Source: Enterobacteria phage WA13. Taken from it: 6,068 nucleotides of DNA. Location of the stretch: sequence record NC_007821.1. One strand, given 5' to 3'. The notes under the pieces were generated by a model. That model saw only the letters and a program-made list of their open reading frames with translations. It made no database searches and was not told the origin of the DNA. Made by a program: the position numbers and the translations under genes. Of this stretch, positions 65 to 4,955 are shown piece by piece. Numbering within the stretch: the stretch's first letter is position 1; each line of letters starts with the position of its first letter.

Positions 65-433
65 ATGAAACCCGCTTACCGCTTGACTCATCCGATTCTC
101 GGCTCTTGGTTGTTTAAGTGCCCCGTTTATATCCGTTATGAGCACCTTCATCACGGTCGTCTTATCAAGGTTCGCGCTGTTCGTGATTTGTCCCCGCGTC
201 AGCAGCTTATTGCTAACCCTAAAAACTGCTTTGACGTTGTTATTGCTGAGATTGACGTTACTTATTGTTCTGTCACTTATTTTGATTATGAGGCTGAGGA
301 ATATACCGAGTGTGATTCAGAAACTATGGATAATATCCTTGCTTATATTAACTCTCCTCATTCCCTTCGCTCTGAGGAGGATTCATCCGTTGATGTTGAC
401 GATATGGCGTGGCTTTATGAAATTGCGGAGTAA
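65..433 (+). CDS. Hypothetical protein (122 aa) in the H-A spacer; not one of the 11 canonical microvirus genes
   Basis: ATG at 65 preceded by TAGGAG (51-56) with 8-nt spacing, TAA at 431-433. By hand count about half of codons end in T versus about a quarter of first positions, the same bias seen in genes D, F, G and H here. The overlapping alternative frame (138..509) gives a Leu-rich product typical of off-frame translation. Acidic C-terminus; I recognise no homologue. Confidence 0.45.
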   Translation: MKPAYRLTHPILGSWLFKCPVYIRYEHLHHGRLIKVRAVRDLSPRQQLIANPKNCFDVVIAEIDVTYCSVTYFDYEAEEYTECDSETMDNILAYINSPHSLRSEEDSSVDVDDMAWLYEIAE

Positions 434-436
434 GTT

Positions 437-526
437 ATGGAAACTGTTGTCGGAAAATTTATTGCTTTGGCTGTTGTTGCTCTTATGCTGTATGGAATTG
501 CCCGCTTAATTCGGAGGTTCCCGTGA
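437..526 (+). CDS. Hypothetical small hydrophobic peptide (29 aa, METVVGKFIALAVVALMLYGIARLIRRFP)
   Basis: ATG at 437 with GGAG (427-430) 6 nt upstream, TGA at 524-526. Single predicted membrane-spanning stretch followed by a basic RLIRR tail. Codons mostly T-ending (act gtt gga.. gct gtt gtt gct ctt). Same frame as ORF 65..433, one codon after its stop. Below the 60-aa cutoff of the supplied ORF track. Confidence 0.3.
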   Translation: METVVGKFIALAVVALMLYGIARLIRRFP

Positions 527-699
527 AGTATTTTAGTCTTGTGGATGAACATTATGCTTATTGCCCTGATACGAGGATTTTGCACATTACTCGTAGCCGT
601 GTTTCTGACCCTCGTTATGAGCGTCGCTTTCTTACTGATGAGGAACATTTTGCACTTTTGGATTGGTTGAAAAATCGCCCAACTTATATTAATTCTTGA
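523..699 (+). CDS. Hypothetical protein (58 aa), GTG start
   Basis: GTG at 523 with GGAGG (513-517) 5 nt upstream, overlapping the stop of the preceding small ORF (GTGA, 523-526). No in-frame ATG exists, so the start must be non-ATG. TGA at 697-699. Very strong third-position T bias (roughly 60% of codons by hand count). Product MKYFSLVDEHYAYCPDTRILHITRSRVSDPRYERRFLTDEEHFALLDWLKNRPTYINS. Confidence 0.35.
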   Translation: MKYFSLVDEHYAYCPDTRILHITRSRVSDPRYERRFLTDEEHFALLDWLKNRPTYINS

Positions 700-758: not shown

Positions 759-2243
759 ATGGCTTCTGAAATCTTCTCTGATGTTGTTAAGTCTGTTTGG
801 TCGCACGCTACGGCTAAGCACGCTCATCTTCGTATGGCTGTTCAGGTTGATAATCGTAGTCGCCTTCTTTCTGATTTGGTTTACCAGTTGGAAAAGCGCC
901 TTTCCGAAGAGACTCATTTGGATGATGAGACTTATGCCCTTTATGAATCTCAGACTGGCCTTTTGGAAGATCATATGGCACTGGTTCGGAAGTGTGCAGC
1001 CCAACTTGATAATAGTAACACTATAGACCACCGTACCCCTTTGGATGCCGAATGTGTTTTCCTGTTTGAAATGATTTGCCCAGGCGTTCGCTACGGTAAA
1101 ACGTTGAATTCTCTTTGGACTAAGTATGTTGCTCAATGGCCTGAGAAGTTAATTCGTCAAGAGTTAGACATGGTTAAGCCTTTATCCTTTAAGGATGAGG
1201 TTGCTAAGTACATGGAGAAGATGCAGGAAAAAACACGCAAAAATCGCATGACTCAAAAAGTAATTAATGAGATGCGTATTGCTCACCAAAAGGGCTGGTT
1301 TTTCGTATTTGATACGTTGACACTTGCTGATGATCGTTTGCAGGCTTTTAATGAAAACCCCAATGCTCTTCGTGATTATTTCAGGACTGTTGGTCGAGCT
1401 GTTCTGCGCGCTGAAGGTCGTTCGGTTAAGGATTCCTACAACGATTGCTATCGCTATCTTTGTGTGCCGGAGTTTGGAGGTCAGCACGGTCGTCTTCATT
1501 GGCATGTTGTGCATATGGTGCGGACTCTTCCTTTGGGAAGTTACGACCCTAATTTCGGTCGCAAGGTACGTAATTATCGCCAGATTAACTCGTTCCGTGG
1601 CATGTGGCCTTATGGCTTCACGCAACCGATAGCTGTACGCTATCAACATGATGCTTATTCTCGCAAAGGTTGGTTGTGGCCTGTTGACAAATCAGGTAAA
1701 GCAATGCAGAGTAAGCCCTATCAGGCGGTCGCATGGTATGTGACCAAATATGTAGCTAAGCAATCTGACCAGCGTCAGAAAGCTATTACTGAGAGACAAA
1801 AAAAATGCAAGAATCCACTTATGGCAATCTGTCTGAAAAAGGAATTCAGAGTTCGCAGCAGCCGGAAACTCGGAATGGAGTTACCGTCGATGGCGCATCT
1901 CAGCAACAAAGTGCTTCTGGAGCTGAGCCGAATCAGCTTCGATTCCAGCCCTCTGTATCAGATAGTGAAAGAGAACGCCAAAAAGCAATTGACCTTGAAC
2001 ATCGGCGCGCTGCCTTTGCACGTCATTTTGGATGTGCGCCCGGAAGTGAGAAGTATGTTGAAAAATATCCGTCGTTTGATGAAAAAGACACCCGAGTTCA
2101 ATTGGCAGAGTTCTATCGCTTCAATGACGGTCACCTTAAAAAATGGGGATATTTCTGATGAAGCACGTCAATACATTATTGATGCAGGAATTACGCCTTT
2201 TGATTTGCGAGCTAAAGCGACTCAAACTTTCGGCGGTAAGTGA
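759..2243 (+). CDS. A: Replication initiation protein A (rolling-circle HUH endonuclease)
   Basis: 494-aa ORF, ATG 759, TGA 2241-2243, SD GAGGG 745-749. C-terminal two-thirds align by eye with phiX174 protein A (GWFFVFDTLTLADDRL, NPNALRDYFR, CVPEFG, HUH-like GRLHWHVVHM, two-tyrosine motif WYVTKYVAK, C-terminal GITPFDLRAKATQTFGGK). Contains the conserved ori(+) sequence. Confidence 0.92.
   Translation: MASEIFSDVVKSVWSHATAKHAHLRMAVQVDNRSRLLSDLVYQLEKRLSEETHLDDETYALYESQTGLLEDHMALVRKCAAQLDNSNTIDHRTPLDAECVFLFEMICPGVRYGKTLNSLWTKYVAQWPEKLIRQELDMVKPLSFKDEVAKYMEKMQEKTRKNRMTQKVINEMRIAHQKGWFFVFDTLTLADDRLQAFNENPNALRDYFRTVGRAVLRAEGRSVKDSYNDCYRYLCVPEFGGQHGRLHWHVVHMVRTLPLGSYDPNFGRKVRNYRQINSFRGMWPYGFTQPIAVRYQHDAYSRKGWLWPVDKSGKAMQSKPYQAVAWYVTKYVAKQSDQRQKAITERQKKCKNPLMAICLKKEFRVRSSRKLGMELPSMAHLSNKVLLELSRISFDSSPLYQIVKENAKKQLTLNIGALPLHVILDVRPEVRSMLKNIRRLMKKTPEFNWQSSIASMTVTLKNGDISDEARQYIIDAGITPFDLRAKATQTFGGK
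1002..1031 (+). other. Viral (+) strand origin of replication, 30-nt protein A recognition and nicking sequence
   Basis: CAACTTGATAATAGTAACACTATAGACCAC differs at only about 3 positions from the phiX174 origin CAACTTGATATTAATAACACTATAGACCAC as I recall it. The expected nick is between G1008 and A1009. Lies inside gene A, as in phiX174 and G4. Confidence 0.8.
1212..2243 (+). CDS. A*: A* (in-frame internal initiation product of gene A); start uncertain
   Basis: phiX174 makes a 341-aa A* from an internal ATG shortly upstream of the conserved GWF..DTLTLADDRL block. Here the in-frame ATGs are 1212, 1221 and 1248; 1212 has AAGGATGAGG (1191-1200) upstream and gives 343 aa. The start cannot be fixed from sequence alone. 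Confidence 0.3.
   Translation: MEKMQEKTRKNRMTQKVINEMRIAHQKGWFFVFDTLTLADDRLQAFNENPNALRDYFRTVGRAVLRAEGRSVKDSYNDCYRYLCVPEFGGQHGRLHWHVVHMVRTLPLGSYDPNFGRKVRNYRQINSFRGMWPYGFTQPIAVRYQHDAYSRKGWLWPVDKSGKAMQSKPYQAVAWYVTKYVAKQSDQRQKAITERQKKCKNPLMAICLKKEFRVRSSRKLGMELPSMAHLSNKVLLELSRISFDSSPLYQIVKENAKKQLTLNIGALPLHVILDVRPEVRSMLKNIRRLMKKTPEFNWQSSIASMTVTLKNGDISDEARQYIIDAGITPFDLRAKATQTFGGK
1805..2158 (+). CDS. B: Internal scaffolding protein B (in a different frame inside gene A)
   Basis: 117-aa ORF inside A. The C-terminus LAEFYRFNDGHLKKWGYF matches the phiX174 B C-terminus (..AEFYRFHDAEVNTFGYF); the divergent N-terminal half is typical for B. Weak SD GAGAG 1791-1795. Confidence 0.85.
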   Translation: MQESTYGNLSEKGIQSSQQPETRNGVTVDGASQQQSASGAEPNQLRFQPSVSDSERERQKAIDLEHRRAAFARHFGCAPGSEKYVEKYPSFDEKDTRVQLAEFYRFNDGHLKKWGYF

Positions 2244-2319
2244 CCCGGATTTTTCTCAGGAGAAGATTCATGCTGAGCTCGACTCGTTACTACGCAAGTT
2301 ATCGCGCTACTTTGACTAA
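2158..2319 (+). CDS. K: Protein K (small non-essential protein overlapping the A/C junction)
   Basis: ATG 2158 overlaps the B stop (TGATG, 2156-2160), as in phiX174. 53 codons translated by hand without an internal stop: MKHVNTLLMQELRLLICELKRLKLSAVSDPDFSQEKIHAELDSLLRKLSRYFD, TAA 2317-2319. Resembles phiX174 K (..KQELLLLVYELNRSGLLA..). Below the ORF-track size cutoff. Confidence 0.7.
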   Translation: MKHVNTLLMQELRLLICELKRLKLSAVSDPDFSQEKIHAELDSLLRKLSRYFD

Positions 2320-2476
2320 GCAGCTGATGTTTTTGACTAAAGCTGACTTTACCAATGATGATGAAAAATGGCTTAATGCCTTTGGTAATTTGCTCCGTCA
2401 GTGGTTTCAGATTGAGGATTGGAAAGGCAATCATAAAAAATTGCTTGACGATTTAAAAAAACGTGATTACATTTGA
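2270..2476 (+). CDS. C: Protein C (DNA maturation/packaging switch protein)
   Basis: ATG 2270 with AGGAG (2258-2262) 7 nt upstream, TGA 2474-2476, 68 aa. Similar to phiX174 C (shared ..DEEKWLN.. region). An alternative GTG at 2240 overlaps the A stop (GTGA) but lacks a comparable SD. Confidence 0.75.
   Translation: MLSSTRYYASYRATLTKQLMFLTKADFTNDDEKWLNAFGNLLRQWFQIEDWKGNHKKLLDDLKKRDYI
2445..2473 (+). promoter_or_regulatory. Sigma70-type promoter PD at the end of gene C, driving D-E-J-F-G-H
   Basis: TTGACG (2445-2450), 17-nt spacer atttaaaaaaacgtgat, TACATT (2468-2473). Closely resembles the phiX174 PD region as I recall it (TTGACA-ttttaaaagagcgtgga-TTACTAT). Confidence 0.55.
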
Positions 2477-2979: not shown

Positions 2980-3054
2980 ATGAAGAAAGCTCGTCGTTCC
3001 CCTTCTCGTAAGAAAGGCGCTCGTCTCTGGTATGTAGGCGGTTCTCAATTTTAA
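2980..3054 (+). CDS. J: DNA-binding/packaging protein J (small basic protein)
   Basis: ATG 2980, two nt after the D stop. MKKARRSPSRKKGARLWYVGGSQF (24 aa), TAA 3052-3054. The C-terminus GARLWYVGG.QF matches phiX174 J; the short length fits the G4/alpha3 type. SD GGAG 2967-2970. Confidence 0.8.
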   Translation: MKKARRSPSRKKGARLWYVGGSQF

Positions 3055-3059
3055 TTAAC

Positions 3060-3073
3060 GGGGCTTCGGCCCC
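3060..3073 (+). terminator. J-F spacer hairpin GGGGCTTCGGCCCC (UUCG tetraloop); likely weak terminator / mRNA-stabilising structure
   Basis: Perfect 5-bp G/C stem closing a C(UUCG)G tetraloop. No strong U tract follows (tataagg), so termination would be partial. The F Shine-Dalgarno AAGGA lies at 3077-3081. Confidence 0.5.
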
Positions 3074-3088
3074 TATAAGGATTCTTAA

Positions 3089-4372
3089 ATGTCAAACGTG
3101 CAAACTTCCGCTGAACGTATTCCTCACGACCTTTCTCATCTGGTTTTTGATGCAGGCAAAATTGGTCGTTTAAAGGTTGTTTCTTGGACTCCTGTTGTTG
3201 CAGGTGATTCTTTTGAGCTTGATATGATTGGCGCTATTCGCCTTTCCCCGCTTCGTCGTGGCCTTGCTGTTGACTCTCGTGTTGACCTGTTCACGTTTTA
3301 TGTCCCTCATCGTCATGTATATGGTGAGCAGTGGATTGATTTTATGAAGCAAGGTGTTGATGCTGCTCCTTTGGCCCCTGTTCAGTGCTCTCGCGGTTGG
3401 GATAGTGCTCAGTATCTTGCTACTATTCCGTCTAGTAACTTAAAGGTTCCTAAGTTTCTTCATCAAGGTTACCTGAACATTTACAATAATTACTTTAAAG
3501 CTCCGTGGATGGATGACCTGACTTATGCCAACCCGTCTAATATGGAGGGTGAAGATGTTCGTTTTGGTGTTCGTGCATGTAACTTGAAAACTATTTGGAC
3601 TGCTCCGCTTCCTCCGGATACTGAAACCTCTCATTCTATGGAGACTGAAACCAACTCCATTGACATTATGGGTTTGCAGGCCGCTTATGCTCAATTACAT
3701 ACTGAGCAGGAGCGTGATTACTTCATGACTCGTTATCGTGATATTGTTAACGAATTTGGAGGTAGTACTTCTTATGATGCGGATAATCGTCCTTTGCTTG
3801 TTATGCATTCTGAGTTCTGGGCCTCAGGCTATGATGTTGACGGCACCGACCAAAGCTCTCTCGGTCAGTTCTCCGGTCGTGTCCAGCAGACGTTTAAGCA
3901 TTCAGTACCGCGATTCTTCTGCCCTGAGCATGGCACTATGTTCACACTCGCATTGGTCCGCTTCCCGCCGACTCATGAAATGGAGATGCATTACTTAGTT
4001 GGTAAAGAAGATTTGACTTATACTGATTTGGCTTGTGACCCTGCTTTGATGGCTAACTTGCCTCCTCGTGAGGTTAATATGTCTCAGTTCTTCCATTCTG
4101 GAAGTGCTAGTGCTAAGTTTAAGATCGCTGAAGGTCAGTGGTATCGCATGCAGCCTGATCGCGTTGCATTGCCGTATAACTATCTTGATGGTTTTCCGTT
4201 CTATAGCGCGATTCCGTCTGATGATATTAAGCAGCGCGTTCTGGTTAATACTGATAACTACGATGAGGTTTTCCAGTCTATGCAGCTTGCGCACTGGAAT
4301 ATGCAGACTAAGTTTAATTGCACCATTTATCGTAATATGCCGACCACTCGCGACTCTATTATGACCTCTTGA
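3089..4372 (+). CDS. F: Major capsid protein F
   Basis: 427-aa ORF. Long stretches match phiX174 F (MSN.QT.AER.PHDLSH, FTFYVPHRHVYGEQWI, GYLNIYNNYFKAPWM, DIMGLQAAYA, LVMHS..WASGYDVDGTDQ.SLGQFSGRVQQT.KHSVPRFF.PEHGTMFTLALVRFPPT, C-terminal PTTRDSIMTS). Confidence 0.95.
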   Translation: MSNVQTSAERIPHDLSHLVFDAGKIGRLKVVSWTPVVAGDSFELDMIGAIRLSPLRRGLAVDSRVDLFTFYVPHRHVYGEQWIDFMKQGVDAAPLAPVQCSRGWDSAQYLATIPSSNLKVPKFLHQGYLNIYNNYFKAPWMDDLTYANPSNMEGEDVRFGVRACNLKTIWTAPLPPDTETSHSMETETNSIDIMGLQAAYAQLHTEQERDYFMTRYRDIVNEFGGSTSYDADNRPLLVMHSEFWASGYDVDGTDQSSLGQFSGRVQQTFKHSVPRFFCPEHGTMFTLALVRFPPTHEMEMHYLVGKEDLTYTDLACDPALMANLPPREVNMSQFFHSGSASAKFKIAEGQWYRMQPDRVALPYNYLDGFPFYSAIPSDDIKQRVLVNTDNYDEVFQSMQLAHWNMQTKFNCTIYRNMPTTRDSIMTS

Positions 4373-4409: not shown

Positions 4410-4955
4410 ATGTTTCAAGTTTATGTATCTAAACATGTTGCTCCGTTCACCTCTGTGAATCGTGCCTTTTCTATTGCCCCTGCCGCCAATCCCGAAGTTG
4501 TTAACTCTGGTGAGATTGTTGCAGGTCGTTCTACTTTTCGCATTGCTTCTTCTATTGCTTCTGCTTCCAATGGTAGTGGTTTTGCTTTTGTTCAGATGAT
4601 GGATCCGAATTCTCCTGATTCTCAGCAGGTTTTCTCTGTTGCTGCTTCGTTGTCCTTTAGTGTTGATTCGAATTATATTCCTTGTGTTGTTCGTTTTGAG
4701 AGCACTGTTGCTCAGCCTACCAGCTTTGATATTGCAACCGCTGATTTTATTCCGGTTGAGGCTTCTGCCCTTTCTCCTCGTGCGCTTAGCGTTCGCGATT
4801 GTGTTACCGTTGATGTTAAGCCTCGTACTGAAGGCAATAATGTTTTTGTTGGTGTGGTTTTCTTCTCTGCTGCCGCTAATGCTGGTAATGTCACTGGTGT
4901 TGTTTCGATGGCTCAGGTTGACCACGAAGTTACAGCTTTGCAGCCGCTTAAATAA
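4410..4955 (+). CDS. G: Major spike protein G
   Basis: ATG 4410 (MFQVYVSKH.., compare phiX174 MFQTFISRH..) with AAGGA 9 nt upstream, TAA 4953-4955, 181 aa. Conserved CVVRFES, VRDCVTVDVKPRT.GNNVFVG and C-terminal LQPLK. The supplied ORF start at 4377 is a GTG inside the upstream hairpin and is not used. Confidence 0.9.
   Translation: MFQVYVSKHVAPFTSVNRAFSIAPAANPEVVNSGEIVAGRSTFRIASSIASASNGSGFAFVQMMDPNSPDSQQVFSVAASLSFSVDSNYIPCVVRFESTVAQPTSFDIATADFIPVEASALSPRALSVRDCVTVDVKPRTEGNNVFVGVVFFSAAANAGNVTGVVSMAQVDHEVTALQPLK

Follow-up and report, generated by a model that had tools for sequence, protein, structure and literature searches.

Protein C of Enterobacteria phage WA13 starts, we are fairly confident, at AUG 2270 through ordinary Shine-Dalgarno-led initiation; an AGGAG seven nt upstream would direct ribosomes to this codon, 26 nt past the termination of A translation and essentially independently of the ribosomes that finish A. 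The GTG that overlaps the stop codon of A is very probably a relic that goes unused, not a C start in this phage, and protein-level constraint in the C frame, as judged from substitutions among related phages, starts at ATG 2270 and not at this GTG. We infer the start site actually used, the loss of A-to-C coupling and the direction of evolutionary change from comparisons between genomes. The initial annotation had suggested that the A-C coupling seen in phiX174 (ATGA) may here be loosened or replaced by GTG initiation, and these two halves of the suggestion fared differently. Loosening agrees with the position at which constraint begins, the invariance of AGGAG and ATG, the strength and spacing of the Shine-Dalgarno (SD) sequence and the curated records, all of which put the start of C at the SD-ATG set apart from the A stop, not at an ATGA overlap. 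Replacement by GTG initiation finds no support in the nine codons after the GTG, which evolve like non-coding sequence while the K frame is conserved, or in the only nearby SD-like element, GGCGGU, which ends 1-3 nt away.

Gene arrangement at the A/B/K/C junction

The stretch of DNA analyzed here, 6068 nt and called the window below, is by its sequence a complete Alphatrevirus (alpha3-like Bullavirinae) genome with the gene order A-B-K-C-D-E-J-F-G-H, in which B lies within A, E within D, and K across the end of A and the start of C. Its open reading frames match the annotated coordinates of WA45 and alpha3 (Table 1). Nucleotide identity is 99.3% with WA45 (across 6068/6068 nt), 92-94% with NC3, ID32, NC35, ID21, NC28 and ID62, and 85% with alpha3. 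In the junction itself (2050-2480) the window and WA45 are 100% identical, and all 41 positions at which they differ fall elsewhere. The same TGATG, GTGA and AGGAG are present in alpha3, WA45, WA13, St-1, phiK, NC3, ID21, ID32, ID62, NC28, NC29, NC35 and Lilleven, except that G2157A in ID21 and NC28 leaves a stop (TAA) and the K ATG intact; in these phages, as in the window, an ATG lies 26 nt past the A stop and C is annotated from there as a 68-aa protein. Elsewhere in the window, the open reading frame that would begin with the GTG of a GTGA at 523-526 has a coding-type substitution pattern.

Table 1. Features of the A/B/K/C junction in the window
Feature	Position	Strand	Basis
Gene A (replication initiator, 494 aa, ends AAG TGA)	759..2243	+	ORF; identical coordinates in WA45 and alpha3; Pfam Phage_GPA, 201 bits
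Gene B (internal scaffolding protein, 117 aa; lies inside A, read in a different frame)	1805..2158	+	ORF; WA45 annotation; Pfam Phage_B, 163 bits
TGATG (B stop TGA 2156-2158 overlapping K ATG 2158-2160)	2156..2160	+	Read from the sequence
Gene K (53 aa)	2158..2319	+	Annotated in WA45, alpha3 and other alphatreviruses
GTGA (GTG 2240-2242 over A stop TGA 2241-2243)	2240..2243	+	Read from the sequence; invariant in 24/24
18 nt in alphatreviruses, absent from phiX174, G4, ID18 and Lilleput	2244..2261	+	MAFFT alignment of 7 genomes
Shine-Dalgarno AGGAG for gene C	2258..2262	+	-7.4 kcal/mol with the 16S 3' end; 6-7 nt spacing
Gene C (68 aa, start ATG 2270)	2270..2476	+	12 records; Pfam Phage_C, 38.5 bits

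The TGATG at which B stops and K starts is correctly placed in the initial annotation, which had noted its likeness to phiX174. The 14-mer GGATATTTCTGATG at this point is common to the window, phiX174, G4, ID18 and the distant phage Mimer, and we regard the likeness as deep homology rather than chance. From the ATG of TGATG, K is read in frame A+1 through the A stop, a geometry found also in phiX174, G4 and ID18, and in all four the K ATG precedes the A stop by 83 nt; C is in frame A+2 in both the window and phiX174. K overlaps the end of A (2158-2243) and the start of C (2270-2319). By BLASTP it has 11/20 identities with phiX174 K (55% over 20 aa, E 0.003), but this similarity may be a by-product because the conserved end of A is encoded in the same stretch; Pfam gave nothing for K at E <= 0.01. 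An alternative K start given in the St-1 record, ATG 2143, was rejected, as it is without an SD (-2.5 kcal/mol) and without a phiX174 counterpart. The RefSeq note for ID18 describes K as non-essential in that phage's own genome.

Onset of C-frame constraint and the ribosome-binding site

Constraint was counted in 17 distinct alphatrevirus sequences, and a wider pool held 24 distinct sequences. In the 17, second positions of the C frame vary in 6/9 codons at 2243-2269, in 0/16 at 2273-2319 and in 2/51 at 2320-2473 (Fisher p = 1e-5), and the 24-sequence pool gives the same 6/9 and 0/16 counts for the first two intervals. The C frame is thus not constrained from the overlapping GTG onward: 6/9 second positions vary after the GTG versus 2/67 after ATG 2270. 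The nine codons after the GTG encode 11 distinct C-frame peptides versus 4 K peptides in the 17 sequences, with C-frame changes that include L>P, L>H, R>Q and T>I; C residues 1-55 have just 5 variants. Of the 11 substitution events in 2244-2269, eight change the C-frame residue, 6/9 K third positions vary there, and a TCT>ACT>AGT codon switch keeps Ser in K. This pattern indicates that 2244-2269 is constrained as K alone and that from 2270 C is the dominant frame and K drifts. The three C-frame codons 5' of the ATG read RRF (RKF in alpha3), like residues 2-4 of phiX174 C (RKF), and changes within them are conservative (R/K, F/Y); the likeness would be explained equally well by the conserved K motif EKI, which is encoded by the same bases.

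The initial annotation was right that a well-positioned SD and in-frame ATG for C lie downstream of the A stop. A 7-nt spacer separates AGGAG from ATG 2270-2272, which shares the frame of GTG 2240; between the A stop and this ATG lie 26 nt, so that the first base of the ATG is 27 positions past base 2243. The predicted pairing of the C SD (-7.4 kcal/mol) is comparable to that predicted for D (-7.3) and H (-8.2) in this phage. Both AGGAG and ATG 2270 are identical in 24/24 alphatrevirus sequences, and at sites within them where a change would be silent in K (2259, 2262 and 2271), 0/3 vary versus 6/7 neighboring K-silent sites (p = 0.03). Predicted RNA structure around the two candidate starts is not in excess of shuffled controls (start region z = +1.2), and no Rfam family was found in the window.

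Might ribosomes that finish A nevertheless remain bound to the mRNA, travel the 26 nt to AUG 2270 and reinitiate there, aided by AGGAG? This possibility concerns how ribosomes are delivered and not where C starts, so it is compatible with AUG 2270 as the start site, and under it C output would still depend on A translation. In its favor are the short distance, the absence of structure between the A stop and the ATG, and a strong SD that could catch a ribosome after termination. However, termination-reinitiation coupling in E. coli reporter pairs is almost abolished at an intergenic distance of ~20 nt (PMC10666635), so the 26-nt gap between A and C argues for independent initiation, and the SD, which matches those of the highly expressed D and H in strength, suggests de novo binding of 30S subunits. 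We therefore think such stretched coupling improbable.

The GTG over the A stop

The GTGA at 2240-2243 lies, as the initial annotation stated, over the A stop with its GTG in the C frame. By alignment, and by the equal distance between K ATG and A stop, GTG 2240 is the positional homologue of the ATGA at which C starts in phiX174 and G4: GGCGGTAAGTGA in the window aligns with GGCGGAAAATGA in phiX174, and the last Lys codon of A is AAG in the window versus AAA in phiX174-type genomes, a change that is silent in A. It is this homology, and not the GTGA pattern itself, that gives the GTG any meaning. For any TGA, 3/4 of the possible preceding bases yield ATG, GTG or TTG; a TAA (2237-2239) lies directly 5' of the GTG in the C frame; and only two single substitutions in the nine codons between GTG and ATG would make a stop (A2261T and A2264T). 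With this chance expectation, the upstream TAA and so few possible stops, GTGA on its own carries no statistical weight. Both stop-making changes are non-synonymous in K and fall inside or adjoining AGGAG, so an open C frame in 24/24 sequences is uninformative, and we rejected the open frame 5' of the ATG as a sign of translation, since K-silent substitutions cannot make a stop there. Each base of GTGA is likewise fixed by A (Lys, stop) or by K (Ser, Asp). That all 24 sequences retain the GTG and the open frame is thus forced by overlapping A and K codons and speaks neither for nor against use of the GTG. The sole SD-like match upstream of the GTG is the interrupted GGCGGU, whose end is 1-3 nt from the codon.

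Annotations and protein collections hold C in the shorter form. Twelve GenBank records, from alpha3 (X60322) through Lilleven, annotate C from the ATG, and automatic gene callers use the ATG for C and never the GTG. The exact 68-aa C is present in NCBI, Logan and ENA, and 15/15 listed members of an 81-member cluster are 68 aa long; a 78-aa, GTG-started C is absent among about 15 billion predicted proteins. The 68-aa C scores 38.5 bits against Pfam PF12025 (Phage_C; cut-off 25), its residues 8-65 falling on profile positions 8-65 of 68, and the GTG-extended form scores 38.0 bits, with no gain. The text of a 2026 preprint on complete mutagenesis of phiX174 holds no start-codon data for C.

That GTG 2240 is the principal C start, coupled to A termination as in phiX174, with ATG 2270 as an internal Met codon, is in our judgment barely tenable. 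Its positional homology with the phiX174/G4 start and the resemblance of the RRF/RKF before the ATG to phiX174 C residues 2-4 speak for it, but it does not fit the sharp switch in constraint at 2270, it does not explain why a canonical AGGAG never varies at K-silent sites, it gains nothing in the Pfam comparison (38.0 vs 38.5 bits), and no annotation or gene caller uses it. The substitution pattern described above would, however, also be expected if the GTG gave an unconstrained, dispensable N-terminal extension. Most C would then come from AUG 2270, and an occasional restart at GUG 2240 after the A/A* UGA (2241-2243) would add a minor 78-aa C with ten extra residues that selection would hardly touch, if at all. 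GTGA is a proper 4-nt overlap, placed where C starts in phiX174, G4, ID18 and Lilleput; the GGCGGU just 5' of the GTG pairs with the anti-SD at -6.3 kcal/mol; the C frame is open in 24/24 sequences; and a GTGA-overlapped GTG start is probably used elsewhere in this genome (523-526, with GGAGG five nt upstream). We nonetheless consider such dual initiation unlikely: the extension shows no selection (8/11 events in 2244-2269 change its sequence, L>P and L>H among them), an SD spacing of 1-3 nt is poor, and constraints on A and K suffice to account for the GTG, the overlap and the open frame. Nor would there be reinitiation on transcripts that start inside A past the A/A* starts, because ribosomes do not read the A frame on them; no promoter of this kind was located in the window (in the phiX174 record the pB start, at 4899, comes after the A* start, at 4497). 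If dual initiation were true, an abundant 68-aa C would be accompanied by a rare 78-aa C that tracks A translation, and the latter would be a retained trace of phiX174-type A-C coupling.

Comparison with other Bullavirinae

Probable independent initiation at AUG 2270 sets the window apart from phiX174 (C at 133-393), G4, ID18 and Lilleput, in which the C ATG overlaps the A stop as ATGA where the window has GTG. The phiX174-type C start has a weak and too close SD-like element as its only one (-4.8 kcal/mol, gap 2-3 nt), whereas the window C has a strong SD of its own. The 18 nt found only on the alphatrevirus side of this comparison, whose placement is ambiguous by 2 nt (flanking GA), add six codons to K (DPDFSQ), and their 3' end forms part of AGGAG. 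In an ungapped BLASTP comparison of the C frame, RRF-M of the window pairs with RKF-D of phiX174, which places ATG 2270 four codons downstream of the phiX174 C start position. The C bodies are homologous (41% identity, E 2e-10); at the other end of the gene, the phiX174 C stop overlaps the D start, whereas the window has 43 nt between C and D. Generic NTGA termination-reinitiation pairs have the same geometry as the window GTGA, but here the downstream frame is unconstrained until 27 nt later and there is no SD at a working distance, so that GTGA looks like such a pair in sequence and not in evolutionary behavior.

A different arrangement again is found in another of the Bullavirinae, Pectobacterium phage Mimer (gpC, ON872163.1), whose B stop has the same 14-mer and whose C body is homologous. 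In Mimer one 94-aa ORF begins at the ATG of TGATG, continues past the A stop and includes the C body; K does not exist as a separate gene, and C is linked to the B stop, not the A stop, unlike in the window. IMG/VR was scanned with C of the window, gpC of Mimer and an alignment of mixed C sequences; the matches were copies of known genomes and three new alphatrevirus contigs (a further apparently new contig, of 5883 nt, proved to be phiX174), with no relatives of Mimer among them, so a change from ATGA to SD-ATG, or the reverse, could not be polarized. A profile search with a C alignment over 5.8 billion proteins was dominated by phiX174-like matches, many of them longer than C, and gained no alphatrevirus sequence; a metagenome scan with a degenerate gene C 20-mer gave 113 matching stretches, among which only L134 matched the window junction by BLAST.

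The SD-ATG arrangement of C is already known, annotation from ATG 2270 is standard in alpha3-like phages, and the finding is in this respect an ordinary one; our analysis adds comparative support alone to the existing annotation and matters little to it. Its modest value is evolutionary, in that the three classical microvirus groups start C inside the overlapping-gene stack in two ways. The phiX174/G4 way fuses start codon and A stop and has a poor SD, and the alpha3-type way would use an independent strong SD and ATG, enabled by the 18 extra nucleotides; Mimer, with C starting at the B stop, represents a third. In refactored or recoded alpha3-type genomes, 2244-2269 could be handled as sequence that codes for K alone and carries the ribosome-binding site of C.

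The A/B/K/C junction and its initiation signals

The 6068-nt sequence is the entire circular genome of a microvirus in the genus Alphatrevirus, and WA13 (NC_007821) is cited among the alpha3-type genomes (PMC6883844). It is 99.3% identical to WA45 over its full length (100% in 2050-2480), 92-94% identical to NC3, ID32, NC35, ID21, NC28 and ID62, and about 85% identical to alpha3, phiK and St-1. Its A, B, K, C, D, E, J, F, G and H ORFs have exactly the WA45 annotation coordinates, and NCBI holds the 68-aa C protein under both WA45 and WA13. Separately, 29 of the 41 differences from WA45 are clustered in ~300 nt of gene F (3889-4195), suggesting either a patch of recombination or a surface loop that is hypervariable.

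Features of the WA13 A/B/K/C junction and H-A region, and the corresponding Mimer ORF
Feature	Coordinates	Strand	Remark
B stop TGA	2156-2158	+	read from sequence
K start ATG	2158-2160	+	overlaps B stop as TGATG
A end AAG TGA	2238-2243	+	read from sequence
GTG	2240-2242	+	overlaps A stop as GTGA
AGGAG	2258-2262	+	Shine-Dalgarno (SD) sequence of gene C
ATG	2270-2272	+	seven bases after AGGAG, in frame with GTG 2240
H-A ORF	65-433		conserved in 8 alphatreviruses
H-A ORF	437-526		conserved in 8 alphatreviruses
H-A ORF	523-699		conserved in 8 alphatreviruses
Mimer K/C ORF	ON872163.1 2199-2483	minus	94 aa; opens at ATG of GGATATTTCTGATG (B stop)

The TGATG, GTGA, AGGAG and ATG 2270 described in the initial annotation are all present on reading the sequence. 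TGATG lies in a 14-mer, GGATATTTCTGATG, that is the same in WA13, phiX174, G4, ID18 and even Pectobacterium phage Mimer, which is very distant. In the St-1 record K begins at an ATG further upstream in the same frame (2143-2145); the ATG at 2158 is the better start because the upstream one lacks both an SD (-2.5 kcal/mol) and a phiX174 counterpart.

The GTGA by itself carries no statistical weight, because three different bases before TGA give a potential start codon. Similarly, only two single substitutions could close the frame in the nine codons from GTG to ATG, and both alter K and lie in or beside AGGAG. AGGAG, ATG 2270 and GTGA are invariant in 24 of 24 distinct junction sequences. For GTGA this is uninformative on use, because A or K fixes each of its bases; for the SD and ATG it is informative, because 2259, 2262 and 2271 each occupy the third position of a K codon (CAG, GAG and CAT) and could change silently in K. 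These three never vary, whereas variation is seen at 6 of the 7 remaining third positions of K in 2244-2268 (p = 0.03).

Pairing of AGGAG with the 3' end of 16S rRNA is calculated at -7.4 kcal/mol with a gap of 6-7 nt, so the SD of gene C equals that of gene D (-7.3) in strength and is near that of gene H (-8.2). Upstream of GTG 2240 the corresponding element, GGCGGU, is interrupted and ends 1-3 nt short of the codon. The element before the ATGA of phiX174, G4 and ID18 is equally close and weaker (-4.8 to -4.9), as would be expected if that start relied on terminating ribosomes. The predicted mRNA fold around GTG 2240 and ATG 2270 is no better than that of shuffled sequence (z = +1.2), and no Rfam family matched across the window.

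Where C-frame constraint begins and how C is started

Our alignment first comprised 17 distinct sequences from alphatreviruses: 13 from GenBank genomes, three from IMG/VR contigs and one from a metagenome contig. Nine public-assembly contigs were then added to give the 24 junction sequences. In the interval from the A stop to the ATG (2243-2269), C-frame second codon positions are variable at 6 of 9 sites; all six changes are K-silent and their C-frame effects are T>I, R>Q, I>T, L>P (L>H in one further contig), R>K and F>Y. Downstream, second positions are variable at 0/16 in the K/C overlap (2273-2319) and 2/51 in the rest of C (6/9 versus 2/67, Fisher p = 1e-5), and C third positions are variable at 8/15 and 39/52, respectively. 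The nine codons before the ATG yield 11 different peptides when read in the C frame but only 4 when read as K. A K serine codon there, TCT, is AGT in one contig, a switch that restores the K serine and alters two C-frame residues, and ACT in another. From this contrast the constrained frame is K up to 2269 and C from 2270. C also dominates the overlap, because K drifts there (8 variants over 16 codons downstream of 2269) while C hardly changes: a single substitution in 2270-2319, A13T in one contig, and just 5 variants over residues 1-55. The K stop TAA (2317-2319) is GAA in ID21, MG945254 and a metagenome contig (L134), where K is longer; ID21 K is annotated at 62 aa.

The initial annotation had offered two readings, a spaced SD-ATG and GTG initiation. 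The constraint that begins at 2270 and the invariant SD uphold the former, and very probably ribosomes would bind AGGAG independently and start C at AUG 2270. The same evidence contradicts GTG 2240 as the main C start, which we regard as extremely unlikely even though its position corresponds to that of the phiX174 start (below). Initiation at the GTG to give a minor 78-aa isoform is improbable, and the extension of such a form, if it exists, would not be under selection. The 78-aa sequence was not found among about 15 billion predicted proteins, and the extension gives no gain in Pfam Phage_C score, residues 8-65 of the 68-aa protein lying on profile positions 8-65. The exact 68-aa C falls in a cluster of 81 proteins (NCBI, Logan, ENA, JGI), 15 of whose 81 members were listed, all of 68 aa. 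C is annotated from the ATG at 68 aa in WA45, alpha3, St-1, phiK, NC3, ID32, NC35, ID21, NC28, ID62, NC29 and Lilleven, and this start arrangement of the alphatreviruses is already known. Termination-reinitiation in E. coli reporter pairs is almost abolished once the gap reaches about 20 nt (PMC10666635); by analogy, with a 26-nt gap A-to-C coupling has probably been lost rather than merely loosened.

Comparison with phiX174 and Mimer

In position, GTG 2240 is the true homologue of the phiX174 C start, because 83 nt separate the K ATG from the A stop downstream of it in WA13, phiX174, G4 and ID18, and WA13 GGCGGTAAGTGA aligns to phiX174 GGCGGAAAATGA. The two differ at the third position of the final lysine codon of A, where the change is synonymous for A and replaces Asn by Ser in K. 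When seven genomes are aligned as DNA, 18 nt found in alphatreviruses only fall directly after the A stop (WA13 ...AAGTGA[CCCGGATTTTTCTCAGGA]GAAGATTCATG...; phiX174 ...AAATGA[------------------]GAAAATTCGAC...). They lengthen K by DPDFSQ, and AGGAG is made up of their 3' end and the GAG that follows. Ungapped BLASTP sets WA13 RRF-M-L-S over phiX174 R2-K3-F4-D5-L6-S7, by which the alphatrevirus ATG matches the fifth codon of phiX174 C and the alphatrevirus protein is four residues shorter there. The other end of C is uncoupled too: the C stop overlaps the D start by 4 nt in phiX174, whereas in the 2445-2519 stretch of WA13 C and D are 43 nt apart, with TAGGAG, the SD of D, preceding D and a promoter-like TTGACG-17-TACATT at the end of C (2445-2473). 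This spacer is the most indel-rich stretch of the alphatrevirus junction alignment.

In Mimer, by contrast, K and C share a single reading frame, which passes through the A stop and includes the C body; homology to protein C covers its final two thirds. A frameshift may have split one longer gene into K and C, or the two may have been fused in Mimer. Mimer is the only outgroup for polarising the C start and its own layout differs from both states; no relatives of it were found in IMG/VR. According to the review PMC8227390, a 2006 model by Pavesi regards the 5' part of C as an overlapping extension that arose de novo, and if so the alpha3 state would be older. The Mimer record also has an exact 77-nt tandem duplication (3032-3185) that breaks gene A into separately annotated pieces. 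It is probably an assembly artefact, its length and perfection suggesting an untrimmed assembler k-mer overlap; if so, the true genome is about 5802 nt with A intact.

A GTGA overlap in the H-A region

The H-A region (1-758, 758 nt) has no CDS in the full WA45, alpha3 and St-1 annotations, nor in bases 1-800 of ID21, NC28, ID62, phiK and NC35. Its three ORFs match nothing in Pfam or PHROGs and show coding-type substitution concentrated at third codon positions (first/second/third 40/25/86 of 123 variable in 65-433, and 8/6/25 of about 58 in 527-699). As read from the sequence, the 58-aa ORF (523-699) must start at GTG 523 because it has no internal Met. That GTG overlaps the TGA of a 29-aa hydrophobic ORF as GTGA, five nt downstream of GGAGG (513-517), and is likely a genuine start of the kind that is probably unused at 2240. 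ORF 65-433 is frame-broken in RefSeq alpha3 (NC_001330) and St-1 (NC_012868), and all three ORFs are annotated as hypothetical proteins in Lilleven.
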